Shown here in pieces: positions 7,739-38,197 of a stretch of DNA of 64,000 nt (its first letter is position 1; every line of letters begins with the position of its first letter). The notes beneath the pieces were generated by a model. The model saw nothing but the letters and a program-made list of their open reading frames with translations, searched no databases and was not told the DNA's origin. The position numbers were made by a program, and so were the translations under genes. This stretch comes from Myxococcota bacterium (lineage in GTDB: Bacteria > Myxococcota > B64-G9): assembly GCA_035453905.1 (NCBI GenBank), contig DAOTDZ010000014.1, positions 86,452 to 150,451 of the forward strand, given 5' to 3'.

Positions 7739-7787
7739 GCGATCCGCCCCGCGGCTGCGCCCCCCGCCAGGTCGGGCTGCGCCCGGG

Positions 7788-10700: not shown

Positions 10701-13700
10701 GCAGCCGTTGGAGCGATCGTTGTCGCAGCTGCCGAAGCCCGAGACGCACTGGTTGAAGTCGCACGCGCCGCTGGCGCAGGCGGTGCCGGTGGCGTGCAGC
10801 ACCTGGGTGGTGCAGTCGACCCGGCCCGCGCAGGTCAGGCCGCAGGAGGTGGTCTGCCAGATGTTGGCCTCGCAGCCGGTGGGGACGAGCCCGTCGCAGT
10901 TGCCCCAGCCCTGCTCGCACCCGTCCAGCGCGCAGCCCGCGGGTGCGCAGTGCTCGCTGGCGTGGTCGAGCGCGCAGATCACGCCACAGCCGCCGCAGTT
11001 CGCCTCGTCGCCGGTGAGATCCACGCAGCTCTGGCCGCAGCAGGCCAGCGGCAGCTGGCAGTCGAGCGCGCCGCCGCCGCAGCGGCACAGGCCGTTGAGG
11101 CAGCCCTCGTTCGGGTCGCACAGCGTGTCGCAGTCGCCGCAGTGCTGCTCCTCGGTCAGGGGATCGAAGCAGCTCGCGCCGCAGCAGATCTCCTGCGCGC
11201 TGCAGTCGGCGCCGGTGCCGCCGCAGGCGCAGCCGCCGTCCTCGCAGCTCTCGCCCGCCTGGCAGGCGGTGGCGCAGTCGCCGCAGTGCTCCTCGTCGCT
11301 GAGCGGATCGATGCAGTCGATGCCGCAGCACAGCTGCAGCGCGTTGCAGTCCGGGCCGACGCCGCCGCACAGGCACAGGCCGTCCGTGCAGGACTCGGCC
11401 GGATCGGAGCAGGGCAGCCCGCAGCCGCCGCAGTTCGCCTCGTCGATGTCGGTGTTGGTCTCGCAGCCGTTGGGCTCCAGGCCGTCGCAGTCGATGAAGG
11501 GCGGGGCGCACTCGCCCGGAGTGCACACCCCCGCCACGCACAGGGCCGGCGCGTTGGGGAAGGTGCACACGTTCCCGCAGCCGTTGCAGTTCTCGGGGTC
11601 CGCCTCGAGGTTCCGCTCGCAGCCGTTGACGTCCTGGCCATCGCAGTCGTCCCAGGGCGCCTCGCACTGGAGCACCCGGCAGGCGCTGGCGACGCACTCG
11701 GCGCTGGCGTGGAACAGGCTGCAGATGTTGTTGCACGCCCCGCAGTTCAGCTCGTCGGTGGCGAGCTCGAAGTCCTCGTCGACCTCGTCGTCGCAGTCGT
11801 TGTCGATGGTGTCGCAGGCCTCGACGCCGTTGTTGGACAGCACGCAGGCGTACTCGCAGCCCGTGGCAGGATCGTGGTCGGCGTCCCAGTAGTTGCTCGC
11901 GCAGGCGCCCAGCTCGCAGCCCGAGTCGACGCAGTTGCCCGTCGCGTGCGGGTAGCTGCAGGCCTGGTTGCAGGCGCCGCAGTTGAGCGGATCGTCGGTC
12001 AGGTCGAAGGTCTCGTCGATCTGATCGTCGCAGTCGTTGTCGATGGTGTCGCAGGCCTCGACGCCGTTGTTGGTGAGCACGCAGGCGTACTCGCAGCCGT
12101 TGGTGGGGTCCCCGTCCACGTCCCACTGGCCCTGGGGACAGCCGACCGCCTCGGCGTGCACCTCGACCAGCCGCACCGGAGCGTCCAGATCGGTGGACTC
12201 GATGCGCACCGCGCCGGTGTCCTGGCCGACCACCTCGGGCGCGTACAGCACGCGGAAGGTGAGCATGTCGGCCGCCGAGGCCAGCACCGCGGGCAGCGCC
12301 GGCAGGTCCACCAGCGAGAAGTCCGGGCTCGAGCCCGCGTTGAGCGAGATGCTGGTGACGTCCAGCGGACCCACGCCCACGTTGGTCACGTAGATGGTGA
12401 CCTCGAGCGACTGACCCCGGTAGACGCTGCCCAGCTCGATGGGCGAGGCCATGGGCGACACGAAGATGTTGGGATCGATGGCGTTGCCGAGCAGCGGCAC
12501 CTCCACCTGCGGGTGGTCGGGGTCGTTGCTGGTGATGCCCAGGATCGCCTCGCGGCCGCCGATGGTCTGGGGCGCGAAGGAGACCCGCGGGCTGGACGAG
12601 TCCGCCGGTCCGAGGTTCGGCAGGCTGGTGGGCACCACGGAGAAGGTTCCGCCGCCGCCCTGGATCGCCAGGTCGGGCACCTCGAGGAAACCCTGGCCCT
12701 GGTTGGTCACCTGCAGGTCGAGGCTGCGGCTGCCGCGCACGTGCACGTTGCCGAAGTCGAGCTGCAGCGGGTCCACGCCGATCGCGGGCGGGATGAAGCC
12801 CTCGCCGCTCACCCCGACCCGGCGCGGGGAGGGGGTGACGTCCGGGGAGTAGACCTCGAGCTGGGCGGTCTCGGCCCCCTCGTCGGCCGGGAGGAAGGTG
12901 AGGCTCACGATCCGGCGCTCGCCCGGCTGGAGCACCTGTGGCGTGGCCTCCGACAGGCTGGGGAGATCGAAGCCCGTGGCCGGATCGGAGGCCAGGCCGA
13001 ACTCGGCGGAGGCGCCCGCCAGCCCGAGGCCGGTGACGGCCAGCGGGGCCAGGCCCTGGTTCGCGATGCCGACCTCCAGCGTGCTGGCGACGTCCACCCG
13101 GACCAGCCCGAACTGGATGGGCGCGGGGTCCACCACCAGATCGGGCTGCACGCCGCGGCCGGTCACGGCCAGGTCGAGCTGGGGCTCGTCGGGATCGTCG
13201 CTGACCACGACCAGGGTGTCGAGGTGCTCGCCGGCCGCGCCCGGGGTGTAGGCCACGTCGAGCTCGAGCACGTCCCCGCGGTTCAGGTACACGGGCAGGC
13301 TGGGCAGGCCCTCGAGCTGGTAGGTCGGGCTGGCCACGCTGGCGAGCTGCACGGCCTCGAGGGTCAGCACGGCGTTGCCCGTGCCCTGGTTGCTCAGGGT
13401 CACCCGCATCCGGGCGGTGCCGCCCAGGGTCACATCGCCGAAGGCGACCGCGGCGGGCTCGGCGGCGATGTCGGCCTCGCCCTTGAACTCGCTGCGCAGC
13501 TGGATCCGCACCAGCGCCTCGTCCGCGTCGTTGGAGATGATGTCCAACACCCCGAAGTCGTTGAAACCGTCGGAGGCCGTGTAGATCACGTCCAGGCTGG
13601 TCTCCGCGCCCGGGGCGATCAGGATGGGCAGGCGGGCCGCGGTGGCCGGATCGAGGACGAAGTCCGCCACGGTGCCGTTCTCGAACGCCAGGTCGGAGAT

Positions 13701-14141
13701 GCGCAGATCCTGGGTACCGGTGTTCCCCACCCGGACGCTGCGGGTGACCGGTAGCCCGACCAGGACCGAGCCGAAGTCGAGCACGTACGTCGGCGGGTCG
13801 CCGGTGGCGGCGGGCTCGACGATCTCGAGCTCCGGGCCGGCGGGCAGCTCGTCCCCGCCGTCGTCGCCGTCGCCGCCGTCCGCGCCCTCGACGCAGAAGC
13901 CGTCCCGGCACACCAGCCCGGAGGGGCAGCTGTCTCCCTGGCCACAGGGTATCGGATCCCCGTCGGCGCCCGGCGTGGTGCAGATGCCCTGCTCGCAGGT
14001 CTGGCCGATCGGGCACTCGTCATCCCGCTGGCAGGTGGTGGCGCCGTCCTCGCCGGGGATGCCGGAGTTGTCCGAACAGGACATCGCCAGCGCGCTCACC
14101 AGGAGCGCCAGGCAGCAGGTGAGCCACGAGGAACGCAGCAT
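7788..14141 (-). CDS. Giant secreted lipoprotein (2118 aa) with three blocks: choice-of-anchor-D-like beta-sandwich repeats, a metal-binding Cys-motif block, and about 16 tandem Myxococcus-type Cys-rich 48-aa repeats
   Basis: Start is ATG 14141 with RBS GAGGAGG. The signal peptide [22 protein letters not shown] has lipobox AMSC. The N-terminal block is Ig-like repeats (PLDVTSISL...VRIESTDLD). The middle block carries [14 protein letters not shown] motifs. The C-terminal block is tandem CGxTCxxRVNCxTQVxNAxGxxCxxGxCDYxxCxxGFGDCDxNRxNGCExNIWQ units. The long plus-strand ORF 8337..13754 is an antisense artefact. Confidence 0.85.
8210..10560. repeat. Intragenic tandem DNA repeat, about 144-bp period and about 16 copies, encoding the 48-aa Cys-rich units
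   Basis: The periodicity is visible in the protein and in the repetitive antisense ORFs 9286..10293 and 9775..10116. Boundaries are approximate. Confidence 0.6.
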
Positions 14142-14299
14142 GGGGACCTCCTCAGGCGGCGCCGGCGGGCATTCGCCACGCCTGGATCTTTCTAGCATCC
14201 TACCACGTTTCGGGCGGGGCTCGGAGGACCGCGCCGAGACGGTGGACAGCGACCGGGCGCCCGGGTAGGCTGCCCCCCAGGACAAGGAAGAGGTTCGTC

Positions 14300-16575: not shown

Positions 16576-16662
16576 GTTTTTCAGTCCCCACCTACCCCTC
16601 CATATCCATGAAAACTTTATTATTTCAATGCGTTGATCTGCCTCGAAGGTGCTCTTGACCCG

Positions 16663-16678
16663 TGGCATGTGCCTTGCT
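16663..16678 (+). promoter_or_regulatory. Sigma-54 (RpoN) -24/-12 promoter: TGGCAT-gtgcc-TTGCT
   Basis: This is an exact match to TGGCAY-N5-TTGCW. GG is at 16664-65 and GC at 16676-77. It sits about 80 bp upstream of ATG 16758, downstream of an NtrC-type activator gene and an AT-rich region that is unusual for this genome. Confidence 0.6.
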
Positions 16679-16757
16679 TGTGCCCCCGCTGCCGGTCCGG
16701 ACCCGAATTCGGGACGGGACCGCGAGGCCACGGGAATCGGAACCAAGGAGCTTCGTC

Positions 16758-18359
16758 ATGAGCGTCGAGCCCAGGCTGTTGGTCGTGGACGATGAGGAAG
16801 TCGTCTGCAAGACCTGCTCCAGGATCTTCGAGGGGCAGGGCTACCGTGTCGAGACCGCCACCGATCCGCAGGCGGGCCTCGCCATGGCGACCAAGGGCAA
16901 GTACGCCGTGATCCTGCTGGACATCAAGATGCCCGCGATGGACGGGCTGGCGTTCCTGGCCGAGCTGCGCAAGCAGGACCCCAGGACCCCGGTCATCATG
17001 GTCACCGGCTACCCCTCGGTGCCGAGCGCGGCCACGGCCATGCGCCTGGGCGCCGCGGACTATGTCTCCAAGCCCTTCACCCCGGACGAGATCACCGGGG
17101 CGGTGCGCCGCGTCCTGGGCGGCGCGGCCACCCACACCGCCCGGCCGGCCGCCGGGCCGCTCGCCAGCGCGAGCGCGCCGGCCCCGGGCGTCTTCACCCC
17201 GATGTCCGAGGAGTTCCTGTTCCTGGGAGAGAGCTGGATCCAGGTCGGGCAGGACGGGACCGTGCGCGCCGGCGCCTTCCTCTCGAAGGACGAGGGCGGC
17301 GAGGCCCGCGAGGTGGTGCTGCCCAGGCCGGGCGACAACGTGTTCCAGGGGTTGCCGCTGGTCGGCTTCCGCAAGGCGGGCAGCGAGCCGCGCAGCGTCC
17401 CCTCGCCGGTCACCGGCGAGGTGGTGGAGGTGAACCCGGCGCTGGCGACCCGTCCCAGCCTGGCGTGGGAGGAGCCCTGCCGCCAGGGCTGGATCGCCCG
17501 CATCCGACCGAGCCGGCTGCCGAGCGACCTGAAGTCGGTCGGCCACCGCGTGGTGGTGCTGGCCTGTCCGGACAAGGCCGCCTGCCAGGCCCGCGCGAAC
17601 GCGCTGGGCGGCCTGGGCTGCGAGGTGCTGCACGCCAAGGACGAGGCGGAGATCGCCGCCCACCTGCGCACCGCCAAGGGCGCCCTGGTGATGGTGGACG
17701 GCAAGGGCTTCGGCGCCCGCGGCCCCGAGCTGGTCGGGCGGGTGAACGCGCTCGCGCCCGAGGCCAAGGTGGTGGCGCTGGGTGAGCCCCAGGCCGAGCT
17801 GGAGAAGCAGTACCGCTCCAGGCGCCTGTTCTACTACGCGGCCGAGCCGGTGTCCGAGCGGGAGCTGATCGATCTGCTCGCCTCCGCGTTCCGCCCGGTC
17901 GTCCGCGGCGCGGCCAGGCAGGCCGCCGCCGGCGGGTTGCCCAGCTTCGTGCGCCGGGTGCGCATCACCAACCGGCACGGCCAGGCCGTGTCGCTGCTCA
18001 CCTCGGGCGGCGTGCTGCTGGAGAGCGGCGGGGTCGGCCGGGAGCTGGTCGAGCGCCTGCTGCGGGGGGCGTTCCCGGTGCGCGTCACCCTGGGACGGGA
18101 GGAGTTGACCCCCATGGAGATCCAGGCCGAGGCCAACGACGCGGATCGCATCCTGGTGCTCGAGGTGGGGGACGCAGGCAGGCTGCCCGGCAGCCTGGGG
18201 CGCAACACCGGCAGCGAGCTGGTGCAGGCCTCCGGCGAGGCCGCCGGCAAGGCGGTCGCCTTCGTGGTCCAGCCCGCCGGCGGCGTGGGCCCGCTCGCCC
18301 TCGACGGGCGCACGGAGCAGGCCCTGGCCGAGGCGCTGGTCCAGGAGATGGTGGTCTGA
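16758..18359 (+). CDS. Atypical response regulator: REC domain + glycine-cleavage-H / lipoate-binding (LbpA-like) domain + degenerate receiver-like domain + C-terminal region of unknown function
   Basis: ATG 16758 is preceded by AAGGAG. The receiver domain reads LLVVDDEEVV...ILLDIKMPAMDG...SKPF. The GcvH-like region is ESWIQVGQDGTVRAGAFL...VVLPRPGDNVFQGLPLVGFRKAGSEPRSVPSPVTGEVVEVNPAL...GWIARI. It aligns with GcvH (hEWv..dGT..vGit...V.LPevG..V......ESVKAAS...PVSGEVVeVN..L...P...N.dPYg.GWlfk), including a lysine at the lipoyl-attachment position. The upstream extension of ORF 16662.. is rejected. Confidence 0.7.
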   Translation: MSVEPRLLVVDDEEVVCKTCSRIFEGQGYRVETATDPQAGLAMATKGKYAVILLDIKMPAMDGLAFLAELRKQDPRTPVIMVTGYPSVPSAATAMRLGAADYVSKPFTPDEITGAVRRVLGGAATHTARPAAGPLASASAPAPGVFTPMSEEFLFLGESWIQVGQDGTVRAGAFLSKDEGGEAREVVLPRPGDNVFQGLPLVGFRKAGSEPRSVPSPVTGEVVEVNPALATRPSLAWEEPCRQGWIARIRPSRLPSDLKSVGHRVVVLACPDKAACQARANALGGLGCEVLHAKDEAEIAAHLRTAKGALVMVDGKGFGARGPELVGRVNALAPEAKVVALGEPQAELEKQYRSRRLFYYAAEPVSERELIDLLASAFRPVVRGAARQAAAGGLPSFVRRVRITNRHGQAVSLLTSGGVLLESGGVGRELVERLLRGAFPVRVTLGREELTPMEIQAEANDADRILVLEVGDAGRLPGSLGRNTGSELVQASGEAAGKAVAFVVQPAGGVGPLALDGRTEQALAEALVQEMVV

Positions 18360-18390
18360 GGTCGCCGCGGGGCGGGAGGACGGGAAGGTC

Positions 18391-19044
18391 ATGTCGCCAC
18401 AGCCAGAGACCGAGAGCAGGCAGGAGAAGGTCTTCCAGGGGGCGGCCGCGCCTGGCGAGCCCTCGGCGGAGCTGAAGACCCTGTTCGAACGCAAGCAGGA
18501 CCACCAGTTCCTGGCGGAGCTGGACAAGCTGCCCGAGGGCGCCAAGGTCAAGATGTGCATCCAGTGCGGGACCTGCGGCGGCATGTGTCCGGTGACGCCG
18601 CTGCTGGACCACTCGCCCCGGCGACTGTTCGCCATGCTGCGCGCCGGCATGACGGACGAGGTGCTGGACGCGGCCACGCCCTGGGTGTGCTCGAGCTGCT
18701 ACCGCTGCACGGTGAACTGCCCGGCGGGCATCAAGATCACCGAGGTGATGTACGCGCTGAAACGCCGGGCGATCCAGGCCGGCCGCAAGGCGAGGAGCTC
18801 GGACTACCAGCGCTTCGCCAGCATCTTCACCCGCATCGTCTCCAGGCATGGGCGCTCGCACGAGATGGGCCTGCTCAGCCGCTACATGATGTTCCACCAC
18901 CCGGTCGCCATGGCCAAGCAGAGCGGCCTGGGCATGCGCCTGATGCTCAAGGGCCGCATGCCGCTCACGCAGGAGAAGATCAAGGATCGCGAGGGGCTGC
19001 GGCGCATGGCCGCCAAGGCCCTCGAGCTCGGGGAGGGGGTGTGA
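18391..19044 (+). CDS. hdrC: Heterodisulfide reductase subunit C-like protein (two [4Fe-4S] ferredoxin motifs)
   Basis: The two cluster motifs are CIQCGTCGGMCP and CSSCYRCTVNCP. The RBS is GGGAGGACGGGAAGG. The stop overlaps the hdrB RBS. Confidence 0.8.
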   Translation: MSPQPETESRQEKVFQGAAAPGEPSAELKTLFERKQDHQFLAELDKLPEGAKVKMCIQCGTCGGMCPVTPLLDHSPRRLFAMLRAGMTDEVLDAATPWVCSSCYRCTVNCPAGIKITEVMYALKRRAIQAGRKARSSDYQRFASIFTRIVSRHGRSHEMGLLSRYMMFHHPVAMAKQSGLGMRLMLKGRMPLTQEKIKDREGLRRMAAKALELGEGV

Positions 19045-19046
19045 GC

Positions 19047-19940
19047 ATGAAGAAGTACCTCTACTACCCGGGCTGCTCGCAGAAGGCCACCTCCCGCGCC
19101 TACGAGGAGGCGCTGCTCGCCATCGCCGCCGACCTGGGGCTGGAGCTGCAGGAGGTCGAGGACTGGAACTGCTGCGGGACCACCCCGGTGATGGCGGTCA
19201 ACAAGGTGCTGGCGCTGAGCCTGGCGGCCCGCAACCTGGCCCTGGCCGAGGCCCAGGGCCAGGGCGAGCTGACCGAGCTGGTCACCCCCTGCCCGAGCTG
19301 CTGGCTGGCCCTGCACAAGGCCCAGCACGCGCTGGCCGACGACGAGGAGATCGCGGGCAAGGTGCGCGCCTCGCTCGAGGCCGGCGGCTACAGCTACAAG
19401 GGCACCATCCGCCCGCGGCACCTGCTCGAGGTGCTGGTGAACGAGGTGGGCGTGGAGGCCATCCAGCAGAAGGCCGGCAAGCCCTTGCAGGGGCTCAAGG
19501 TGGCCCCCTACTACGGCTGCCAGGTGCTGAGGCCGTACGCCCAGGGCGATGACGCCGAGCACCCCCAAAATCTAGAGAAGATCATCCGCGCCACGGGGGC
19601 CGAGGTGGCCGAGTTCCCGCTGCAGTCGGCCTGCTGCGGCGGCACCCTGGTGGCCACCCGACCCGAGGTGGGCTACCAGATGAGCGCGGACATCCTGCGC
19701 GCCATCGAGCGCTCGGGCGCCAACCTCGTCGTCACCCCCTGCAACCTGTGTCAGGCGACGCTCGAGATCGTGCAGCGCAAGACCCCCAAGTTCCTCGGCC
19801 ACAAGACCAAGCTGCCCATCCTGGCCGTGACCCAGCTCATCGGGCTGGCCATGGGCAAGTCGGTGAAGGAGCTCGGGCTGCAGCGCTCGCTGAACGCCAA
19901 GCGCTGCCTGCGCACCATGGGCCGGGAGACGGCCGCCTGA
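19047..19940 (+). CDS. hdrB: Heterodisulfide reductase subunit B-like protein (two CCG domains)
   Basis: The N-terminal CCG domain has YYPGCS...NCCGTTPV...PCPSC. The C-terminal CCG domain has YYGCQ...ACCGGTLV...PCNLC. The start is 2 nt after the hdrC stop. Confidence 0.85.
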   Translation: MKKYLYYPGCSQKATSRAYEEALLAIAADLGLELQEVEDWNCCGTTPVMAVNKVLALSLAARNLALAEAQGQGELTELVTPCPSCWLALHKAQHALADDEEIAGKVRASLEAGGYSYKGTIRPRHLLEVLVNEVGVEAIQQKAGKPLQGLKVAPYYGCQVLRPYAQGDDAEHPQNLEKIIRATGAEVAEFPLQSACCGGTLVATRPEVGYQMSADILRAIERSGANLVVTPCNLCQATLEIVQRKTPKFLGHKTKLPILAVTQLIGLAMGKSVKELGLQRSLNAKRCLRTMGRETAA

Positions 19941-19971
19941 GCGGCCCCCAAGGGACGAAGCGAGGAATCAC

Positions 19972-21942
19972 ATGACTCCCAAGATCGGCGTCTATGTCTG
20001 TCACTGCGGCACCAACATCGCTGGCAAGGTGGACGTGAAGGCCACGGCCGAGACCGCCAAGAAGCTGCCCGGTGTGGTGGTCAGCCGCGACTACATGTTC
20101 ATGTGCTCCGAGCCCGGGCAGGAGCTGATCCAGAAGGACATCCGAGAGCACAACCTGGACCGGGTGGTGGTATGCGCCTGCTCGCCGCTGATGCACGAGA
20201 AGACCTTCCGCCGGGCCTGCTCGCGGGCCGGGCTCAACCAGTACCTGATGCAGATGGTCAACATCCGCGAGCAGTGCTCCTGGGTGACCGAGGACAAGGT
20301 CCAGGCCACCGACAAGGCCCAGGCGCTGGTCGCCGGCGGCGTGGGCAAGGCCTGCTTCCTGCGCCCGATCAACGAGCGCGAGGTGTCGGTCAGCCAGAAC
20401 GTGCTGGTGGTCGGAGGCGGCATCGCCGGGATCCAGGCCGCCCTGCAGTGCGCGGACGCCGGATTTCACGTCTACCTGGTGGAGCGGAAGCAGTCGATCG
20501 GCGGCCACATGGCCATGTTCGACAAGACCTTCCCGACCCTGGACTGCGCGGCCTGCATCCTGACCCCCAAGATGGTCACCGTGGGGCAGCACCCCAACAT
20601 CACCCTGATGATCAACTCGGAGGTGGCCGAGGTGGGCGGCTACGTCGGCAACCTCAAGGTCAAGGTGCGCCGCAAGGCCAGCTACGTCGACCACTCCAAG
20701 TGCAACGGCTGCGGCATCTGCATGGAGAAGTGCCCGGGCAAGGCGACCAACGAGTTCGAGCAGGGCCACGGCAACCGCAAGGCCATCTACACCATGTTCC
20801 CCCAGGCCGTGCCCAACAAGCCCATCATCGACAAGGCGGCCTGCCGCTACTTCACCACCGGCAAGTGCGGCGTGTGCGAGAAGTTCTGCAAGAACAACGC
20901 GATCGACTTCAAGCAGGAGGAGCGGCTGGAGGAGATCGAGGTCGGGGCGGTGGTGCTGGCCACCGGCCACCAGGTGTACGACGGGGCCAAGGTCACCCGC
21001 TACGGCCTCGGCAAGCTGCCCAACGTGATCTCGGCCCTCGAGTTCGAGCGCATGGTGAACGCCGGTGGCTTCACCAAGGGAGAGATCAAGCTGGCCGACG
21101 GCAGCCACCCCAAGGCCGTGGGCATCATCCACTGCACCGGCAGCCGCGACTCCAACCACATGGTGCACTGCTCCTCGGTCTGCTGCATGTACTCGATGAA
21201 GTTCGCCCACCTGATCCGCGAGCACTCCGGCGCCGAGGTGTACAACTTCTACATCGATCTGCGCTGCGTGGGTAAGGGCTACGAGGAGTTCTACAACCGC
21301 ATGCTCGAGGAGGGGGTGCACTTCATCCGCGGCAAGGTGGCCGAGGTCTCGAACGACGCCCGCGACCCGAGCGAGGAGGGCAAGCTCATCGCCCGGGTGG
21401 AGGACACCCTGGCCGGGGTGGTGCGGCGCATCCCGCTGGACATGGTCATCCTGGCCAACGGGATCAGCGCCCAGCCCGACGCGGACGACGTGGGCCGCCT
21501 GTTCGGCGTCTCGCGCAACGCCGGCGGCTTCTTCATCGAGCAGCACCCCAAGCTGAACCCGTTCGGCACCCCCAACGGCAGCGTGTTCATCGCCGGCACC
21601 TGCGCCGGGCCCAAGGACATCCCCAACGCGGTGTCCCAGGGCGCCGCGGCCGCGGCCGGCGCCATGACCGTGCTCCGGCAGGGCAAGGTGCTGCTCGAGT
21701 CCACCGCGGCCCGGGTGAACACCGACCTGTGCTCGGGCTGCCGCACCTGCCTGGACATCTGCCCCTACCGCGCCATCTCCTTCGACGAGGAGCTGAAGCA
21801 GGCGCGGGTGGACGAGACCATGTGCCGCGGCTGCGGCACCTGCGTGGCGGCCTGCCCCTCGGGCGCCATCGAGGGCCGGCACTTCACCGACGAGCAAATC
21901 GCCTCCGAGATCGAGGGCTTGATGCGCACGCTGGGGGCCTGA
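19972..21942 (+). CDS. hdrA: Heterodisulfide reductase subunit A-like FAD / iron-sulfur flavoprotein
   Basis: An N-terminal Cys cluster CHCG precedes the FAD Rossmann motif VLVVGGGIAGIQAA. There is an inserted di-cluster ferredoxin domain with CNGCGICMEKCP and CGVCEKFCKNNA. The C-terminus has CSGCRTCLDICP and CRGCGTCVAACP. The protein is 656 aa, typical of full-length HdrA. Confidence 0.9.
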   Translation: MTPKIGVYVCHCGTNIAGKVDVKATAETAKKLPGVVVSRDYMFMCSEPGQELIQKDIREHNLDRVVVCACSPLMHEKTFRRACSRAGLNQYLMQMVNIREQCSWVTEDKVQATDKAQALVAGGVGKACFLRPINEREVSVSQNVLVVGGGIAGIQAALQCADAGFHVYLVERKQSIGGHMAMFDKTFPTLDCAACILTPKMVTVGQHPNITLMINSEVAEVGGYVGNLKVKVRRKASYVDHSKCNGCGICMEKCPGKATNEFEQGHGNRKAIYTMFPQAVPNKPIIDKAACRYFTTGKCGVCEKFCKNNAIDFKQEERLEEIEVGAVVLATGHQVYDGAKVTRYGLGKLPNVISALEFERMVNAGGFTKGEIKLADGSHPKAVGIIHCTGSRDSNHMVHCSSVCCMYSMKFAHLIREHSGAEVYNFYIDLRCVGKGYEEFYNRMLEEGVHFIRGKVAEVSNDARDPSEEGKLIARVEDTLAGVVRRIPLDMVILANGISAQPDADDVGRLFGVSRNAGGFFIEQHPKLNPFGTPNGSVFIAGTCAGPKDIPNAVSQGAAAAAGAMTVLRQGKVLLESTAARVNTDLCSGCRTCLDICPYRAISFDEELKQARVDETMCRGCGTCVAACPSGAIEGRHFTDEQIASEIEGLMRTLGA

Positions 21943-22070: not shown

Positions 22071-24719
22071 ATGCTCGCTTCCAGGTTGACGACCCTCCTG
22101 GGGATCCTCGGAGTCGCCGCGAGCCTGGGCAGCTGCGGCCCCGAGGGCCCCACCCTCCACGAGCGGCTGGGCCCGCTCCGGCCCGCGCAGCTCGACCGCC
22201 AGGGCCGGCCCATCCTGCCCATCTGGGCCACCGAGCAGGAGCGCCTGGCCGCGCTGCGCGCCGCCCCGCCGCCCGCCGATGATCTCAAGGCCGCGCCCGC
22301 CGCGGGCTACCGGGTGCCGGCGGAGTACGAGCCGACGCAGGCCGTGGTCATGACCTACACCTCCTACGACTACCTGCTGGACGAGATCGCGCCCTACGTG
22401 GCCTCGGCCGGGGCCGAGGTCTGGATGGTGGGCGGTCCGGCCAGCATGTCCGGCGTGCCAGCCGCCCAGTACCGCCGGCTCGCCTGGCCCTACGACTCGG
22501 TCTGGTCGCGGGACTACGGCCCGGTCGGCATCGACGAGGCCAGCCACACGCTCGGCATCGTGGATCCCACCTACCGCCACTACGCCAGCCGGCCGGACGA
22601 CGACGACATCCCCTGCCGGGTGGCCGTGGAGGCGGGCGCCGCCTGCCACACGACCACGCTCATCCTGGACGGCGGCAACTACATGACCGACGGCCGGGGC
22701 TCGGTCTTCCTGACCCGGCGCATCTACGACTGGAACAGCCAGCTCAGCGAGGCCCAGGTGAACCAGCTGCTGCGGGACTACCTGGGCGCCCAGAGCCTGC
22801 ACGTCTTCGACTACGCCGTGGACGAGTACGGCGATCCGGCCGACGGCACCGGGCACATCGACATGTTCGCCAAGCTGCTGCCCGGTTGCGTGGTGCTGGT
22901 GGTCGACACGGACGACGCGCCCTTCGCCGCGGTGTGCGACGCCGCGGCCGCGACCTTCGCCGGCCTCGAGTGCGTGCCCGGCCAGAACTACCAGGTCCTG
23001 CGCGTGCCGGGCTGGTACCAGTCGGACGGCTGGTGGGGGGTCTGGTACACGTACACGAACTCGCTCATCATCAACGACACCGTCCTGGTCCCGTCCTACT
23101 CGGGCGGCCAGGACGCAGCGGCTCGCGCCGTCTACCAGCAGGCCCTGCCGGGCTACACCGTCGCGCTGCTCAACACCGACGAGCCCATCCTGAGCGGCGG
23201 CTCCATCCACTGCATCACCAAGGAGATCCCGTTCATCGAGGACCTGGGCTGCGCCACGCCGGCCGACTGCGATCTGCCCCAGGTCGACCAGCACGCCTGC
23301 ACGGCCGGGGTGTGCGGCATCGTCAGCTGCGACCCGGGCTACGGCGACTGCGACGGCGCGGCGGACGACGGCTGCGAGCAGGACCTGTGGCAGGTCGCCG
23401 CCTGCGGCACGAGCTGCGCCCGGCTGGTGAACTGCCCGAGCGAGCTGCAGCACGCCGCGGGCGAGGGCTGCGCGGCCGGCGCCTGCGACTACGCCAGCTG
23501 CGACGCGGGCTACGGCGACTGCGACGGGGAGCGCGAGGACGGCTGCGAGGCGAACCTGTGGCAGCCCGGGGCCTGCGGCACGACCTGCGCCCAGCGGGTC
23601 GACTGCGCGGCCCTGGTGCAGCACGCCACCGGGCTCGCCTGCGCGGCGGGAGCCTGCGACTACGGGGCCTGCGCCGCGCTGTACGGCGACTGCGACGGCG
23701 ACCGGACCAACGGCTGCGAGCTGGATCTCCGCCTGGACGAGGCGCACTGCGGCGGCTGCCTGACGAGCTGCGCGGACGGCGAGGTGTGCGAGGGCGGCCT
23801 GTGCGAGGTCCCGGCCTGCCCCGCGGGCCTCGCGGACTGCGACGGCCAGCCGGGCGACGGCTGCGAGGTCCAGCTCGGCACCGACGCGGACTGCGCCGGC
23901 TGCGGGGACGACTGCCGGGATCGGTTCGCCCACGCCACCGGCGCGTGCGTCCAGGGCGCCTGCGCGCTGGGCCCGTGCGCGGCCGGCTACGGCGACTGCG
24001 ACGGGAGCGCGGCGGACGGCTGCGAGAGCGAGCACGCCACGGACGAGGCCCACTGCGGCGACTGTCAGACCGCCTGCGCGGCGGGCCAGACCTGCGAGGG
24101 CGGCCTGTGCCGCGACGAGCCCTGCCCCGCGGGTCTCGAGGACTGCGATGGCCAGCCGGGCAACGGCTGCGAGGTCCAGCTCGGCACCGACGCGGACTGC
24201 GCCGGCTGCGGGGACGACTGCCGGGGCCTCTTTCCCCACGGGCAGGGCGCCTGCCTGGCCGGCGCCTGCGCGCTGAGCGCCTGCGAGCCGGGCTTCGCCG
24301 ACTGCGACCTCGAACCGGCCTCGGGCTGCGAGCGCTCGCTCGCCGAGGCCGGCACCTGCGGGGCCTGCAACCGCGCCTGCGCCGCGGGGGAGAGCTGCGT
24401 GCGCTCGGGCGCGAGCTGGACCTGCCAGGGCGGCTGCGCCGACGGCGACGGCGACGGGTTCGCCGACCAGGCCTGCGGCGGTGCCGACTGCAACGACCTG
24501 GCGCCCGGCGTGAACCCGGACGCCGCGGAGCAGTGCAACCTGGCCGACGACGACTGCGACGGGCAGACGGACGAGGACGGGGTGTGCGACCGCCAGCCGG
24601 ACGATGCCAGCGGCTGCGGCTGCGCGGCGTCGGGCGAAGGCGGTCCGGGCGCGGAGCTCGGCCTGCTGCTGCTCGTCGGCCTGGCGGCCGTGGGCCGGCG
24701 GCGGACGGGAGAGAGCTGA
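22071..24719 (+). CDS. Agmatine deiminase / Porphyromonas-type peptidyl-arginine deiminase family enzyme fused to Cys-rich repeats, with a MYXO-CTERM sorting signal
   Basis: RBS GGGAGGAGAGAGG precedes the ATG. The lipoprotein signal is VAASLGSCG. The deiminase fold is marked by WSRDYGP, LDGGNYMTDGRG, TGHIDMFAKLLP and a catalytic Cys in GGSIHCITKEIP. About six repeats of CG(T/D)xCxxxVxC...GxCDYxxCxxGYGDCDGxxxDGCE follow. The C-terminus GCGCAASGEGGPGAELGLLLLVGLAAVGRRRTGES is a MYXO-CTERM tail. Confidence 0.8.
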   Translation: MLASRLTTLLGILGVAASLGSCGPEGPTLHERLGPLRPAQLDRQGRPILPIWATEQERLAALRAAPPPADDLKAAPAAGYRVPAEYEPTQAVVMTYTSYDYLLDEIAPYVASAGAEVWMVGGPASMSGVPAAQYRRLAWPYDSVWSRDYGPVGIDEASHTLGIVDPTYRHYASRPDDDDIPCRVAVEAGAACHTTTLILDGGNYMTDGRGSVFLTRRIYDWNSQLSEAQVNQLLRDYLGAQSLHVFDYAVDEYGDPADGTGHIDMFAKLLPGCVVLVVDTDDAPFAAVCDAAAATFAGLECVPGQNYQVLRVPGWYQSDGWWGVWYTYTNSLIINDTVLVPSYSGGQDAAARAVYQQALPGYTVALLNTDEPILSGGSIHCITKEIPFIEDLGCATPADCDLPQVDQHACTAGVCGIVSCDPGYGDCDGAADDGCEQDLWQVAACGTSCARLVNCPSELQHAAGEGCAAGACDYASCDAGYGDCDGEREDGCEANLWQPGACGTTCAQRVDCAALVQHATGLACAAGACDYGACAALYGDCDGDRTNGCELDLRLDEAHCGGCLTSCADGEVCEGGLCEVPACPAGLADCDGQPGDGCEVQLGTDADCAGCGDDCRDRFAHATGACVQGACALGPCAAGYGDCDGSAADGCESEHATDEAHCGDCQTACAAGQTCEGGLCRDEPCPAGLEDCDGQPGNGCEVQLGTDADCAGCGDDCRGLFPHGQGACLAGACALSACEPGFADCDLEPASGCERSLAEAGTCGACNRACAAGESCVRSGASWTCQGGCADGDGDGFADQACGGADCNDLAPGVNPDAAEQCNLADDDCDGQTDEDGVCDRQPDDASGCGCAASGEGGPGAELGLLLLVGLAAVGRRRTGES

Positions 24720-24791: not shown

Positions 24792-25997
24792 ATGGGCCGC
24801 AGCGCGTGGGGTGTGCTCGTCCTGGTGCTGGGCGCCTGGCTGACGCTGGCGGGGAATCCTGGCCTGGCACGGGCGGACGGCATGTCCTTCAGGCTGATCG
24901 GCGGCGACGCCGACGTGCGGGCCACGGCCCAGCGGGCCGTCCTGTGGCAACGCGGCGGGACCTGGGAGCTGCACCTGCAGCCGGTCTTCGCGCGCGGGCA
25001 GGGCGCGGCCGCCTGGGTGGTGCCGTTCCCGGTGCGACCCACCGTGTCGGCGGGCAACCCGGACTTCCTCGACCAGCTCGAGGTGGCCACCTCGCCGGTC
25101 TTCCTGCGGGTGTGCGCCGAGGGCGGCGGCTCCTCCTGCTTCGGCTGCATGGACGCGGCCGGGGTCGGGGACGGGGAGGTGCTGGACGGCAGCTCCTTCG
25201 TGCGGGTCTGGGAGCGGGGCCAGGTGGGCGGGCTGGACTACGCGATCCTCTCGGCCCAGGACGGGGACGACCTGGTGGCCTGGCTGGACGCCGAGGGCTT
25301 CGAGGTGCCGGCCGCGGCCGCGGAGCTGCTCGCGGACCTGGAGCTGGAGGGCACCTTCTTCTTCGCCGCGCGGCTGGGGGCCACCCTCGACCCCAGCCTG
25401 CCGCTCGCGCCGGTGCGCTTCGAGCTGCCCGGGCTCGACCCGCCCAGCTACCCGCTGCGGCTGACCGCGGCGGCGGTGCCGGCGGGGCAGAGCCTGGATC
25501 TGACCCTGTGGGTGATCTTCCCGAACAACGAAGGCTGGGTGCCGGACGGCCGCGAGGTGCGGCAGCCCTCCCGGGAGCTCGCGGACCGGGCGGCCCTGGA
25601 CGGGGCCCTGGAGGAGCTCTTCGCCGCCGCTCCGGACGCGCTGGTCTTGCTGCACAGCGCGACCCTGGACGAGACTGGCGCCCTCGAGGGCCAGGTGTGC
25701 GAATGGATGCTGCCGTGCGTGGGCTACGCGGAGGTCGGGCTGGAGGCGCCCGCGGCCTGGGCGCCCGAGATGGAGTACCTCCGGAGCCCGCCCTACCTCG
25801 TGGACCGCTACCAGGCCCGGCTGGGGGCGGGCGGCCTGGAGGCAGACCTGCGTTTCCGGCCGCTCGCAGAGAACGAGTACCTCGGGCGGGTCACCCGCGT
25901 GTACACCCGCTTCACCTGCCGCCAGGAGGGCTCGGCCGGCGCCTGGGTGGCGTTGCTGGCGGCGGGCGTGGCGCTCCGCCTGCGCCGGCGGGCGTGA
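24792..25997 (+). CDS. DUF2330-family secreted protein with a C-terminal TM + Arg-rich anchor (paralog 1)
   Basis: GGGAGG precedes ATG 24792. The signal peptide is GVLVLVLGAWLTLAGNPGLARA. The protein is colinear with the next gene: RAVLW, WELHLQPVF, AAWVVPFPVRP and GNPDFLDQLE. The C-terminus is AWVALLAAGVALRLRRRA. Confidence 0.6.
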   Translation: MGRSAWGVLVLVLGAWLTLAGNPGLARADGMSFRLIGGDADVRATAQRAVLWQRGGTWELHLQPVFARGQGAAAWVVPFPVRPTVSAGNPDFLDQLEVATSPVFLRVCAEGGGSSCFGCMDAAGVGDGEVLDGSSFVRVWERGQVGGLDYAILSAQDGDDLVAWLDAEGFEVPAAAAELLADLELEGTFFFAARLGATLDPSLPLAPVRFELPGLDPPSYPLRLTAAAVPAGQSLDLTLWVIFPNNEGWVPDGREVRQPSRELADRAALDGALEELFAAAPDALVLLHSATLDETGALEGQVCEWMLPCVGYAEVGLEAPAAWAPEMEYLRSPPYLVDRYQARLGAGGLEADLRFRPLAENEYLGRVTRVYTRFTCRQEGSAGAWVALLAAGVALRLRRRA

Positions 25998-26016: not shown

Positions 26017-27210
26017 GTGGATCGGCCGGCGTCTCTCGCGCTGCTCGTCGCCCTGCTCGGGGCCGGGTCCGTGGCCCGGGCCGACGGGCTGGCGTTCCGG
26101 GTGGAGGGCGGCCAGGCCGAGGTGCGGCCCACGGCCCAGCGGGCGGTCCTGTGGCTGCGGCGCGGGGTGTGGGAGCTCCACCTGCAGCCCGTGTTCGAGC
26201 GGGAGGCGGGCCGGGCGGCCTGGGTGGTGCCCTTCGCGGTGCGGCCCGAGGTGAGCCTGGGGAACCCCGACTTCCTCGACCAGCTCGAGCTGCTGACCGC
26301 GCCCGTGTTCCTCGAGGTGTGCCGGCCGGAGGAGGAGTCCTGCTTCGGCCAGGGCGGGAGCTCGGACACCGCCGGGGAGGTCCGCGCCGGGACGGCCGCG
26401 CCGGAGGTGTGGGAGCGCGGCCAGGTCGGGACGCTCGACTACGTGATCCTGTCCGCCAGGGACGGAGACGATCTCCTGGCCTGGCTGCGGGCCGAGGGGT
26501 ACGCGGTGCCGAACACCGCCATCATCCCCGTGAGGGTCCTGGCCCGGGAGGGCGCCTTCTTCTTCGCCGCCCGGCTGTCCGCCGGCGTCGATCCGGACCT
26601 GCCGCTGCCGAGCCTGCGTTTCCTGCTGCCCGGCCTGCAGAACCCCGCCTACCCGCTGCGCCTGACGGCAGCCGGGGTCCCGGCCGGCGAGCACCTCGAC
26701 CTCAGCCTGTGGGTGATCACCCCGCTGGGACAGGACTGGCTGCCCGCGGAGCGCCGCGTCGCCTCGCCGCCACCCGCGCTGGACGATGCGGCGGCCCTCG
26801 ACGCGGCCCTGGGGGACATCTACCTGGAGGACCCGGACGGCCTGGCGCTGCTCTACAGCGCTTCGCCGCGGGAGACCGGCGGCTTCGACGGCCAGGTGTG
26901 CGGCTGGCAGTACGGCTGCGTGGACTTCGCGGCGCTGGGCCTGGCGCGGCCCGACGCCTGGTGCCCGGAGCTGCAGCTCGTGCGGGACGACGCCGCCTGG
27001 GTGCAGCGGTTCCAGGCGCGCCTGCACGCGACCGGGCTGACCACGGACCTGCGCCTGCGGCCCCGGGCGGCGACCGAGTACCTCGACCGCGTGGAGCGCG
27101 TCTACCTGCGCTGGGTGTGCCGCGACGCCCAGGCCACGTCCGGCTGGTGGGTCCTGCTGGCCCTGGGGCTGGGGCTCGGGCTGCGGCGGCGCCGGCGCGC
27201 TGGCCCTTGA
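26017..27210 (+). CDS. DUF2330-family secreted protein with a C-terminal TM + Arg-rich anchor (paralog 2)
   Basis: GTG start. About 55 % identity to the preceding gene over the full length. The C-terminus is GWWVLLALGLGLGLRRRRRAGP. Confidence 0.6.
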   Translation: MDRPASLALLVALLGAGSVARADGLAFRVEGGQAEVRPTAQRAVLWLRRGVWELHLQPVFEREAGRAAWVVPFAVRPEVSLGNPDFLDQLELLTAPVFLEVCRPEEESCFGQGGSSDTAGEVRAGTAAPEVWERGQVGTLDYVILSARDGDDLLAWLRAEGYAVPNTAIIPVRVLAREGAFFFAARLSAGVDPDLPLPSLRFLLPGLQNPAYPLRLTAAGVPAGEHLDLSLWVITPLGQDWLPAERRVASPPPALDDAAALDAALGDIYLEDPDGLALLYSASPRETGGFDGQVCGWQYGCVDFAALGLARPDAWCPELQLVRDDAAWVQRFQARLHATGLTTDLRLRPRAATEYLDRVERVYLRWVCRDAQATSGWWVLLALGLGLGLRRRRRAGP

Positions 27211-30360: not shown

Positions 30361-31122
30361 TCAGAAGCGGCGATCGCGCAGGAACGGCTGGCGGGCGCGG
30401 ACCTCGGCCACCCGGGCCGGCTCGAGCTCGGCCAGCAGCAGGCCCTCCTGGGCGCCGCCCGCGGCCAGGGGCTCGCCCAGCGGGCCATAGATGGCCGAGC
30501 CGCCCGCGTAGGTCAGCCCGCCGCCCTGGCCCACCCGGTTGACCCCCACCAGGCAGCACTGGTTCTCCACCGCCCGGGCCGGCAGCAGCGTGTCCCAGGC
30601 GCGCTGGCGCGTGTCGGGCCAGGAGGCGATCACCAGCATCAGCCAGCACTCCTCGGCCACCAGGCGGAAGAGCTCCGGGAAGCGCAGGTCGTAGCACACG
30701 AAGGCGGAGGCGCGGCCGCCGCCGAGCGGGAAGGTGACCGGCCCCGGACCGGGCTCGTGCTGGCGATCCTCCCCGGCGTAGCCGAACAGGTGGCTCTTGA
30801 CGTAGGTGGCCTGGAGCTCGCCGTCCGGGCCCACCAGCCTGGCCGCGTTTCGCCCGCGGCCGGCCGCGCCGGCGAGCACCAGCCCGCCCAGCACCGCGAG
30901 CCCGTGGCGCCGGGCCAGGGCTCGCAGGAAGGCCGTGGTCGGCCCGTCGTCCGCCTCGGCGGTGAAGGCCGGGTTCAGCGAGAAGCCGGTGGCGAACATC
31001 TCCGGCAGCACCAGCAGCTCGGCCCCCGCCGCCCGGGCGCGTGCGGCGAAGCCCTCCACCCGGGCGTAGTTGGCCTGGCGATCCTCCCAGGCCACCTCGA
31101 GCTGCAGCGCGGCCAGCTTCAT
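30361..31122 (-). CDS. Carbon-nitrogen hydrolase (nitrilase-superfamily, omega-amidase-like)
   Basis: MKLAALQLEVAWEDRQANY...LLVLPEMF(E)...VKSHLF(K)...AFVCYDLRFPE(C) supplies the E-K-C triad context. ATG 31122 overlaps the stop of the upstream aminotransferase in an ATGA arrangement. The longer ORF 30361..31719 is rejected. Confidence 0.8.
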   Translation of the reverse strand: MKLAALQLEVAWEDRQANYARVEGFAARARAAGAELLVLPEMFATGFSLNPAFTAEADDGPTTAFLRALARRHGLAVLGGLVLAGAAGRGRNAARLVGPDGELQATYVKSHLFGYAGEDRQHEPGPGPVTFPLGGGRASAFVCYDLRFPELFRLVAEECWLMLVIASWPDTRQRAWDTLLPARAVENQCCLVGVNRVGQGGGLTYAGGSAIYGPLGEPLAAGGAQEGLLLAELEPARVAEVRARQPFLRDRRF

Positions 31123-32288
31123 GACCGGCGCCAGCGCCGCAGACGGGCGATGGCCTCCTCCAGGGTGTCGTCCCGCTTGCAGAAGGCCAGGCGCACCTGA
31201 TCCCGGCCCCCGCGCCGCTCCTGGTAGAACACGGAGAAGGGGATGGCGGCGACCCCGGCCTGGGCGGCCAGCCGGCGGCAGAACTCGAGATCGTCCGTGG
31301 CCCCCAGGCCCCCGATGCGCCAGGTGGCGTAGTAGGTGCCGGCGGGCCGGCTCACCTCCAGGCCGAGCTCGGTCAGGGCGTCGCACAGCCGCGCGCGCCG
31401 CCGGGTGTAGGCCTCGAGCAGCTCCCGGTAGTAGTCGTCCGCGAAGCCCAGCCCCACGGCCATGGCGCGCTGCAGGGGGCCCGGGGTGCAGAACGTCAGG
31501 AACTGGTGGGCGGCGCGCACCGCGGCCGTGAGCGGCGGCGCGGCCACGGCGTAGCCCACCTTCCAGCCGGTCATGGAGAAGGTCTTGGCCGTGGAGGAGA
31601 TGACGATGCTCGCCTCGCGCAGGCCCGGCACCTCGAGCAGGCTCACGTGCCGGCGCCCGTCGTAGACCAGGTGCTCGTACACCTCGTCGCCGATGGCCAC
31701 CGCCCCGTGCCGCTGGCACAGCTCACCCAGGAAGCGGAGCTCCTCGGCCGAGTACACCTTGCCGCACGGGTTCTGGGGGTTGTTCACCAGGACGGCCCGG
31801 GTGCGGGGGTTGAAGGCCCGCTCCAGCGCCCGCTGATCCAGCTCGAAACCCGGGCCCTGCAGCGGGACGCACACCGGCCGCGCCCCGGCCCGCGCCACCA
31901 TGGCCGGGTACAGGTCGTAGAAGGGCTCGAGCAGGATCACCTCGTCGCCCGGGTCGAGCAGCCCGAGCAGCGCCGAGGCCAGCCCCTCGGTGGCCCCGGC
32001 GGTCACCGTCACCTCGCGCTCGGGGTCCACCTCCAGGCCGTGGAAGCGCCGGAGCTTGGCCGCCACCGCCTGGCGCAGCTCGGGCACGCCGGGGCTGGGG
32101 GCGTACTGGTTGGGGCCCCGCAGGAGGTCCTCGGCCGCCAGGCGGCGGAGCTCCTCGGGGCCGTCGAAGTCCGGGAAGCCCTGGGACAGGTTGACCGCTC
32201 CCAGCCGGTTGGCGAGCTGGGTCATCTCGGTGAAGATGGAGGTGCCGAACGGGGCCAGGCTGGCGCTCACCTGTCGCTTGGGATCCAT
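31119..32288 (-). CDS. PLP-dependent class-I aminotransferase (glutamine transaminase K / methionine aminotransferase-like)
   Basis: ATG 32288 is preceded by GGAGGT. PLP-lysine context is VISSTAKTFSMTGWKVGY. Also present are LSQGFPDF and NNPQNPCGKVY. Confidence 0.85.
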   Translation of the reverse strand: MDPKRQVSASLAPFGTSIFTEMTQLANRLGAVNLSQGFPDFDGPEELRRLAAEDLLRGPNQYAPSPGVPELRQAVAAKLRRFHGLEVDPEREVTVTAGATEGLASALLGLLDPGDEVILLEPFYDLYPAMVARAGARPVCVPLQGPGFELDQRALERAFNPRTRAVLVNNPQNPCGKVYSAEELRFLGELCQRHGAVAIGDEVYEHLVYDGRRHVSLLEVPGLREASIVISSTAKTFSMTGWKVGYAVAAPPLTAAVRAAHQFLTFCTPGPLQRAMAVGLGFADDYYRELLEAYTRRRARLCDALTELGLEVSRPAGTYYATWRIGGLGATDDLEFCRRLAAQAGVAAIPFSVFYQERRGGRDQVRLAFCKRDDTLEEAIARLRRWRRS

Positions 32289-37902: not shown

Positions 37903-38197
37903 GAGACTCTCCTCCGTTCCGACCGTTTTCGAACTGTCCGACCCTAGACTTACCTTTTCCCGAAATCCAGAATTTTCTTGCCCCTGGTGCAGGGCGTCAA
38001 TAGCCTACGGATACACGCCGTCACTTCAAGCCTCATGCCAGCCCCAGGCGCCCCGGCCAAGATCTCAATCCACTGAATTCATAGAGTAATTTGCAGTGTA
38101 GGATGTTGTGCTCCGGGGTGATCCTGTAGCCTGAAATTGATCCTTCGAACGCTGGTGTTCTCTTATGGTTCTGAATTTACTATTGTTTATTTCTTGT

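Follow-up and report, generated by a model that had tools for sequence, protein, structure and literature searches.

What kind of enzyme is encoded by a gene that couples a deiminase head to a cysteine-rich stalk and a surface-sorting tail, and on which guanidino substrate would it act? The question is raised by positions 22071..24719 (+ strand) of a 64,000-nucleotide stretch of contig DAOTDZ010000014.1 (assembly GCA_035453905.1, Myxococcota bacterium), hereafter the window, which contain a complete gene for an 882-residue lipoprotein-type precursor. Its product joins a domain resembling the Porphyromonas gingivalis peptidylarginine deiminase (PPAD) to a Cys-rich stalk and a MYXO-CTERM tail; this architecture, claimed in an earlier note on the same DNA, is borne out by domain hits and by the translation. 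The best overall explanation is an exported, surface-displayed PF04371 deiminase that belongs to a sister clade of PPAD and would act on carboxylate-bearing arginine substrates. We regard this explanation as evenly balanced between right and wrong, and the same joint judgment covers the predicted competence of the head as a Cys-His-Asn/Asp-Asp deiminase of PF04371.

The catalytic domain (aa 81–387; 22311..23231, +) is assigned to the guanidino-group-modifying (pentein) fold by Pfam, AlphaFold2 (AF2) and Foldseek. The profile search proposed in the earlier note returns Pfam PAD_porph (PF04371) over this whole segment with E=7.8e-40 and 137.5 bits against a cutoff of 25, and the match spans model positions 1 to 321 of 321, in agreement with the claim that the deiminase domain is complete. 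The four motifs quoted there are all found, as RDYGP (residues 147 to 151), DGGNYMTDGRG (residues 200 to 210), GHIDMF (residues 261 to 266) and GGSIHCITKEIP (residues 376 to 387). On alignment, residues D148, H262, D264, N330 and C381, together with W145, pair with D130, H236, D238, N297, C351 and W127 of PPAD. All five catalytic positions, whose loss had been named as grounds for doubt, are therefore present, and with W145 they are invariant across 120 homologues. In PPAD, mutagenesis and structural work show that the equivalent residues perform the chemistry (PMC4893104, PMC4487231).

Structurally, the AF2 model of the head is confident (mean predicted local distance difference test score, pLDDT, 90.9) and forms a five-bladed alpha/beta propeller. 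Foldseek places the PPAD structures 5ak7 and 4ytb on top (E ~3e-27, 31% identity), followed by AguA structures (E ~1e-23, 1.5e-23 at best; 20–22% identity), with a probability of 1.00 to both. A phmmer search of Protein Data Bank sequences gives the same order, PPAD at E=1.2e-28 and AguA at 7e-17 and weaker. The head is 34–36% identical to PPAD over ∼294 aligned residues, and PPAD is its nearest solved structure (4YT9/4YTB/5AK7). The two proteins share the Pfam family, the five catalytic residues, the Trp wall, the GGNYMTDG and YTNSLI motifs, and an equivalent of PPAD R154 (R174).

Phylogenetic placement was obtained from a neighbor-joining tree of 47 sequences with 100 bootstraps. The window protein falls in a monophyletic clade (clade A, 94/100) next to the PPAD clade (clade B, 88/100), and A and B together are set apart from context-validated AguA (84/100). 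On average, members of clades A and B are 27% identical to each other, and those of clade A share 22% with AguA. By sequence, the deiminase is thus placed neither with AguA nor inside the PPAD clade but in an uncharacterized sister clade of PPAD.

The two clades differ in their hosts. The catalytic-domain search recovered more than 313 relatives at 41–66% identity. HMMER, run exhaustively against 1.84 billion cluster representatives, returned 3776 PF04371-type proteins at E≤1e-3, of which 168 reach E≤1e-30 and only ∼30 clusters exceed 180 bits; the PF04371 proteins from this search form a continuum with many loop variants. The confirmed loci in GTDB species genomes number 369 and are hosted by Myxococcota metagenome-assembled genomes (MAGs), Oligoflexus, Pseudobacteriovorax, Bacteriovoracaceae, Silvanigrella, Bdellovibrio and many Elusimicrobiota. 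The reverse search with a PPAD fragment yielded a different and large set (1488 matches, 47–59% identity) from Cloacimonadota, Bacteroidota, Ignavibacteria, Marinimicrobia and even Thermoplasmata MAGs, frequently with type IX secretion system (T9SS) tails or dockerins. Among the PPAD-type proteins from this search (P0121–P0240), the equivalents of R152, R154, Y233 and I234 are invariant. These many homologues outside Porphyromonas indicate that PPAD is not unique to that genus at the sequence level.

Two loops distinguish clade A from PPAD. A basic, clade-specific loop, Y168-R169-H170-Y171-A-S-R174-P-D-D177-D178 (22572..22604, +), matches the R152/R154 loop of PPAD, and in the alignment the segment P256-A-D258-G-T-G-H262-I-D264-M (22836..22865, +) occupies the site of the Michaelis loop of PPAD and has no Tyr233. 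Both loops are well conserved among the 120 homologues: R169 and H170 are kept in 115, R174 in 118 and D177 in all of them, and P256, D258, T260, G261, H262 and D264 are invariant in the homologue alignment. The specificity loop is an invariant Y-R-H-Y-x-x-R-x-x-D-D in clade A and an invariant Y-N-R-P-R-P in clade B; the loop before the catalytic His is an invariant P-A-D-G-T-G-H-I-D-M-F in clade A and an invariant Y-I-x-H-[IV]-D-C-W in clade B. Clade B therefore keeps all four of the PPAD residues R152, R154, Y233 and I234, whereas clade A keeps only the R154 equivalent (R174) at its position. In PPAD, R152 and R154 hold the substrate's C-terminal carboxylate, R154 additionally binds the peptide carbonyl that precedes it, and Tyr233 prevents extension at the C-terminus (PMC4487231). 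Since R152 is not positionally kept and Tyr233 and Ile234 are absent, a PPAD-like specificity is not simply transferable. The earlier note's choice of PPAD as the closest analogy consequently stands in part: PPAD is the nearest characterized relative by sequence and fold, but the window protein lies outside the PPAD clade.

Comparison with the agmatine deiminases (AguA, EC 3.5.3.12) used four genes from plasmid records, three of them in an agmatine-operon context: an Enterococcus aguA (with ptcA, a permease and arcC), a Vibrio aguA (with a permease and a carbamoyltransferase gene) and a Pseudomonas gene (with aguB), in addition to a Bacillus cereus member without such context. Opposite the YRHYASR of the window protein, each of the four AguA-type sequences carries FN[AG]WG[GK] (FNAWGG or FNGWGK) and an insertion devoid of basic residues. 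They also read EGG(S/A).H.DG, as opposed to the DGGNYMTDG found alike in the window protein and in PPAD. The AguA equivalog model TIGR03380 scores the window protein at 79.7 bits against a cutoff of 381.8, and PRK13551 at 81.7 against 483. Genomic neighborhood analysis by tblastn found no homologue of AguB, PtcA, an agmatine/putrescine antiporter or permease, or ArcC, either in the window or across the 1.0 Mb that surrounds 87 clade-A loci, an absence that points away from agmatine, as the loop evidence does. An ordinary AguA, the fallback raised in the earlier note, is discarded on these three counts: the equivalog cutoff, the replaced specificity loop and the missing pathway neighbors. The comparison of active sites that the note had proposed is divided with respect to PPAD, in that the catalytic set is shared and the AguA loop is absent, but only one of the two carboxylate-binding Arg of PPAD is retained at its aligned position and Tyr233/Ile234 are gone. 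Relative to AguA of Enterococcus faecalis (2JER), the window protein has in common the pentein fold, the Cys/His/Asp chemistry and the Pfam family; it differs in being only 21–25% identical, in being exported, whereas AguA is cytoplasmic, and in lacking both the FNxWGG loop and the pathway neighbors.

These features bear directly on the substrate. Plant agmatine iminohydrolase (AIH) has a negatively charged channel with Trp91 and Trp125 along its walls, and the agmatine amine is held there by D220, the A360 backbone and a D89-bound water (PMC6447857). A basic R/H/R entrance loop would suit a negatively charged group on the substrate more than it would the cationic agmatine amine, which favors Arg with a free alpha-carboxylate. 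The contrast between the basic entrance residues of clade A (R169, H170, R174) and the aromatic, negatively charged channel of AguA, combined with the equivalence of R174 to PPAD R154, points in the same direction. As judged from these loops, the substrate is most likely an Arg with a free carboxylate, either a peptide C-terminal Arg or free L-Arg, with agmatine less likely.

Beyond the head, the protein continues into a Cys-rich stalk (aa 394–798; 23247..24464, +). Repeat anatomy, established by regular expression, gives a half-repeat (residues 394 to 419) followed by seven repeats of 49–61 residues each, starting at residues 420, 477, 534, 583, 636, 685 and 738; the six repeats reported earlier are thus an undercount. 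The consensus is C-x2-G-x2-DCDG-x4-GCE...CGxCGxxC...CxxGxC, with five further Cys per repeat beyond the GCE part, and residues 388 to 882 contain 68 Cys in 495 positions. At the DNA level the stalk contains tandem arrays of 171 nt (2.5 copies) and 306 nt (2 copies) with 78–80% match, showing recent tandem duplications. The repeats match no Pfam family; among NCBIfam models, NF041328 (‘MXAN_6577-like cysteine-rich’) gives a weak match of 22 bits against a cutoff of 100, and no further Cys-rich repeat model appears at E≤0.1. On sequence grounds the repeats are assigned to the MXAN_6577/Stig1-like myxobacterial type. The module is shared by at least 241 proteins, nearly all from Polyangiales, Sandaracinaceae, Minicystis, Labilithrix and Archangium, some with Kelch, LamG, fibrinogen-C or Ig heads and some named MYXO-CTERM proteins. 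The AF2 model of repeats 3–7 shows small beta-hairpin modules (pLDDT 91.3); compared with the Protein Data Bank it matches nothing at E<0.001 and bears a faint resemblance to epidermal growth factor (EGF) arrays. The breadth of the module across Myxococcota proteins and its confident modeling establish the stalk as a genuine, lineage-typical extracellular module.

The stalk is followed by a MopE-type ‘putative metal-binding’ Cys/Asp motif (PF11617; aa 806–835; 24486..24575, +; E=1.5e-07, 32 bits against a cutoff of 27), which also precedes the tail in orthologues P0002–P0009 and P0022. The tail itself is a MYXO-CTERM sorting signal (24609..24704, +) composed of S-GCGC (residues 848 to 851), a spacer, a hydrophobic helix (residues 863 to 875) and RRR (residues 876 to 878). 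TIGR03901 recognizes residues 847 to 878 at 23.3 bits against a cutoff of 20, in line with the earlier reading of this tail, while the GC_trans_RRR model falls marginally short (15.6 against 15.85); the layout agrees with the published tripartite motif (PMC11980579). Loss of the tail in orthologues, which had been held out as a sign of trouble, is not what is observed, as it is kept in P0002, P0003, P0004, P0007, P0008, P0009, P0011, P0022, P0058 and P0362 and at loci L014, L015, L017 and L023.

The combination of Cys-rich segment, MopE motif and MYXO-CTERM recurs in P0002, P0003, P0004, P0007, P0008, P0009, P0022, P0362, L015 and L017, and related tails occur in P0011 and P0058/L023. The stalked, MYXO-CTERM form is a minority architecture in the family, represented in ∼10 Myxococcota relatives, and the seven-repeat stalk of the window protein is among the longest, with only P0362 clearly longer. 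Most clade-A proteins are short and exported, ending 10–50 residues past the catalytic Cys motif; other C-termini include a PKD plus P-domain pair, a lamin-tail domain, a PT-rich linker and a 1000-residue extension. The last of these is seen at L018 (6001–∼10200, Myxococcota MAG RA.bin29) and in P0361, clade-A deiminases of 58–60% identity in which a non-Cys-rich extension of ∼1000 residues replaces the stalk. The C-terminal region of the family is a hot-spot of domain swapping.

At the N-terminus, a lipoprotein signal that the earlier description had passed over is present as MLASRLTTLLGILGVAASLGS followed by C22. The signal peptide (22071..22136, +) ends in the lipobox LGS before C22, and MLASRLTTLLGILGVAASLGSC fits the PROSITE PS51257-type pattern (AASLGS-C22); N-terminal lipidation at C22 is accordingly a prediction of the sequence pattern. 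All clade-A proteins examined with intact N-termini have a signal peptide. Under the strict pattern, the lipobox is found in 51/119 clade-A members and in 8/9 stalked orthologues, compared with 1/120 in the PPAD clade. Most Myxococcota members have it, and the Oligoflexia and Elusimicrobiota members have signals of the signal peptidase I type. The lipobox and the MYXO-CTERM tail thus occur on one polypeptide, and both are kept in 8/9 stalked orthologues (P0002–P0009, P0022, P0011), which implies anchoring at both ends (dual lipid anchoring). [quoted passage not shown] By analogy, the deiminase would be a lipidated protein of the cell surface.

Together, these elements suggest the following course for the protein. 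The precursor would cross the inner membrane by Sec and be lipidated on Cys22 at the lipobox, and the stalk cysteines would form disulfides in the periplasm. The MYXO-CTERM tail would then be processed by a myxosortase (a MrtX-type CPBP protease) after lipidation of Cys849/851. At the surface, the rigid repeat stalk would keep the enzyme head off the membrane, where the head would convert the guanidino group of an Arg-type substrate into a ureido group with release of ammonia.

Several observations weigh against this explanation, and most concern the substrate. Depending on the alignment used, PPAD R152 pairs with H170 or falls opposite a gap; R169 and H170 are displaced 2–3 residues upstream, and the loop is 2 residues longer than that of PPAD. 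Tyr233 and Ile234 are replaced by G259 and T260 within a PADGTG loop that is 3 residues longer, so that the mode of binding may differ from that of PPAD. In addition, D258 lies four positions before the catalytic His (−4), where plant AIH has its amine-binding D220, and is compatible with agmatine; PPAD is also acidic at that position (E232), however, and the position therefore does not discriminate between substrates. An extracellular or periplasmic agmatine deiminase, converting environmental agmatine into N-carbamoylputrescine and ammonia, for example to scavenge nitrogen, would account for this invariant Asp, for the shared Pfam family and for the strong fold match to AguA at E ~1e-23; every source annotates the window protein as ‘agmatine deiminase family protein’, and at least one AguA-like protein, from Bacillus cereus, has a lipobox as well. 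It is nevertheless unlikely, given that the AguA equivalog model is missed by 300 bits, that FNxWGG is replaced by a basic loop, whereas the AguA channel is negatively charged, that aguB, ptcA, the antiporter and arcC are absent from the window and from the 87 loci, and that the tree groups the deiminase with PPAD. Human peptidylarginine deiminases have Ser/Thr at the position of PPAD Tyr233, which permits internal Arg (PMC4487231), and the gate is likewise missing from clade A with its aligned G259/T260. An endo-type protein citrullinase could thus be envisaged that modifies internal Arg in surface proteins of prey or neighbors, or neutralizes Arg-rich cationic peptides, the more so as the clade is concentrated in the predatory lineages Myxococcota and Bdellovibrionota, and also in Elusimicrobiota. 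Endo-action is very unlikely: the longer replacement loop could itself shut the cleft, the basic loop, being conserved, speaks for a free carboxylate, and the loops align with some uncertainty. The conserved loops unique to the clade, the many loop variants along the PF04371 continuum and a gene neighborhood that hints at no pathway would also suit some other guanidino compound (guanidino acids, or an Arg-containing envelope component or secondary metabolite) and hence a new PF04371 substrate class. This is less parsimonious, since R174 corresponds to PPAD R154 and the guanidinium-binding Asp pair and the Trp wall are common to PPAD, and we hold it to be highly improbable.

The remaining counterpoints concern display. 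Neither a myxosortase/CPBP protease nor T2SS genes occur among the ∼40 window open reading frames (ORFs) scanned, a result that is uninformative for the genome as a whole, and the pairing of a lipobox with MYXO-CTERM falls outside the published myxosortase sorting model (PMC11980579). The enzyme could accordingly be genuine yet not surface-displayed: held in the periplasm or at the inner leaflet of the outer membrane by its N-terminal lipid, or released, with a tail that is non-functional or serves as a transient inner-membrane anchor. Such a location would fit the absence of a myxosortase from the ORFs scanned, the lack of precedent for a dual anchor in the published model and the fact that most clade members have a signal peptide or lipobox alone and no tail. 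The tail, however, scores above a curated cutoff, and tail and stalk are conserved in ∼10 or more orthologues despite rapid repeat turnover. Three more window proteins have similar tails, and the general occurrence of MrtX orthologues reported for the phylum (PMC11980579) argues in the same sense, leaving a non-surface location improbable. Surface display of a carboxylate-directed deiminase can also be extended into a wider proposal, which we consider unlikely: an extracellular protein- or peptide-citrullinating clade in predatory and environmental Gram-negatives (Myxococcota, Bdellovibrionota, Elusimicrobiota), represented here by a surface-displayed enzyme tethered by lipid at both ends and possibly endo-acting. 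Without a Tyr gate, internal Arg might be accepted, and proteins of prey or neighbors could then be remodeled or Arg-rich cationic peptides disarmed.

Known systems resemble the surface-displayed deiminase proposed here in parts. Like PPAD, it is predicted to be exported with a C-terminal signal that sorts it to the outer surface. Unlike PPAD, it belongs to the sister clade, lacks a positional R152, has the PADGTG loop instead of Tyr233/Ile234, has no Ig-like domain and carries an N-terminal lipobox; its host is a member of the Myxococcota rather than the Bacteroidota, and its sorting is predicted to follow MYXO-CTERM, myxosortase and T2SS, as opposed to the T9SS C-terminal domain of PPAD. TraA and MXAN_4924 of M. 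xanthus share the succession of N-terminal export signal, head, Cys-rich stalk and MYXO-CTERM with its Cys motif, transmembrane helix and Arg cluster. They differ in that their head is a PA14-like receptor and not an enzyme; the window protein, moreover, has a lipoprotein-type signal peptide, and its repeats match weakly as MXAN_6577-like. A hydrolytic enzyme displayed through MYXO-CTERM is also the design of the myxosortase-dependent enzymes defined by NCBIfam (for example the phytase-like phosphatase NF045638) and of an M64 peptidase encoded in the window, all with other catalytic domains. The myxosortase literature searched describes no deiminase as a MYXO-CTERM client, and a full-text search combining peptidylarginine deiminase with Myxococc- returned nothing on such an enzyme.

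To our knowledge, PPAD is usually described as a unique bacterial citrullinating enzyme and is linked to rheumatoid arthritis. The present survey shows that PPAD-type enzymes are widespread in uncultured bacteria of the FCB (Fibrobacterota–Chlorobiota–Bacteroidota) group, with a separate, uncharacterized sister clade in Myxococcota, Bdellovibrionota/Oligoflexia and Elusimicrobiota. Should clade A act extracellularly as a citrullinase of peptides or proteins, bacterial citrullination would reach beyond Porphyromonas to environmental and predatory bacteria, and a further enzyme class would join the surface cargo of MYXO-CTERM. If instead free Arg or agmatine is deiminated for nitrogen, the protein is no more than a common type of exported hydrolase carrying the anchor usual in its lineage. 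In either case, a lipobox and a MYXO-CTERM on one polypeptide provide a concrete test case for the unsettled lipidation step of the myxosortase pathway. What is already known is that databases annotate the gene generically and that its architecture recurs in MAGs.

The gene model itself is well supported. Positions 22071–24719 form one uninterrupted ORF of 882 codons in translation, and the Joint Genome Institute (JGI) gene caller independently produced an identical 882-residue product on metagenome contigs of 215 and 319 kb. At least 11 metagenome contigs encode the identical protein, and NCBI holds a partial identical copy named ‘agmatine deiminase family protein, partial [Myxococcota bacterium]’. 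The ATG start lies 128 bp past the stop of an HdrA-like gene, and the G+C content at third codon positions (0.87) is similar to that of adjacent genes in a window of 68–80% G+C. Domain scans of the window proteins identify, among others, Ser/Thr kinases, sigma-54 activators with FHA domains and PEGA domains, which fits Myxococcota. The best match among GTDB species representatives is 59–63% identical, and the nearest deiminase loci in GTDB species genomes are all in Myxococcota MAGs. The source is an uncultured Myxococcota MAG, and the label ‘predatory or social myxobacterium’ attached to it earlier is an assumption.

No conserved neighborhood surrounds clade-A deiminases, either in seven loci compared by Pfam content or in a tblastn search of 11 window neighbors against the 87 loci, which gave three trypsin matches only. 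Trypsin-family serine protease genes lie ∼1–6 kb from clade-A deiminases at four unrelated loci (L009 890–1891, L018 ∼10659–11198, L040 ∼7364–8017 and L069 ∼299–958) and at 12 kb in the window (36856–38004, −). PPAD needs an Arg-specific protease to generate its substrates, and this dependence is what makes the proximity notable; it may be due to chance.

A CN-hydrolase gene (30361–31122, −) located 5.6 kb downstream of the deiminase was considered as a candidate AguB and rejected: its product is YafV/omega-amidase-like, scores 55 bits against the 410-bit AguB cutoff and is encoded beside a methionine-type aminotransferase gene. The two genes (30361–32288, −), a YafV-like CN_hydrolase paired with a methionine/glutamine-type aminotransferase, look like a glutaminase-II or methionine-salvage pair.

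Other window proteins have tails of a related kind. The M64 peptidase (49401–51953, +; 850 aa) contains a Peptidase_M64 domain (Pfam E=1e-51) followed by four Cys-rich repeats of ∼85 residues, of a different type from those of the deiminase stalk, and ends in GGCGCG...hydrophobic...RRRPRA, which scores 16.4 bits on TIGR03901, under the cutoff of 20. By its sequence it is read as a second stalked enzyme of MYXO-CTERM-like design in the window. Two tandem DUF2330 genes (24792–25997 and 26017–27210, +) start 72 bp past the deiminase stop. Both products end in Cys, a hydrophobic segment and RRRR, the second scoring 19.0 bits on TIGR03901 and the first below reporting; DUF2330 genes are not found beside deiminase homologues elsewhere.

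Upstream and co-directional with the deiminase gene is a heterodisulfide-reductase cluster of the HdrC/HdrB/HdrA type (16659–21942, +), with a response-regulator-GCV_H fusion and a sigma-54 response regulator ahead of it and no evident functional link to the deiminase. Further upstream, on the opposite strand, a giant protein of 2169 residues (7791–14297, −) combines ASH/HYDIN-like Ig domains with a Stig1-type Cys-rich segment and constitutes a large, extracellular product.

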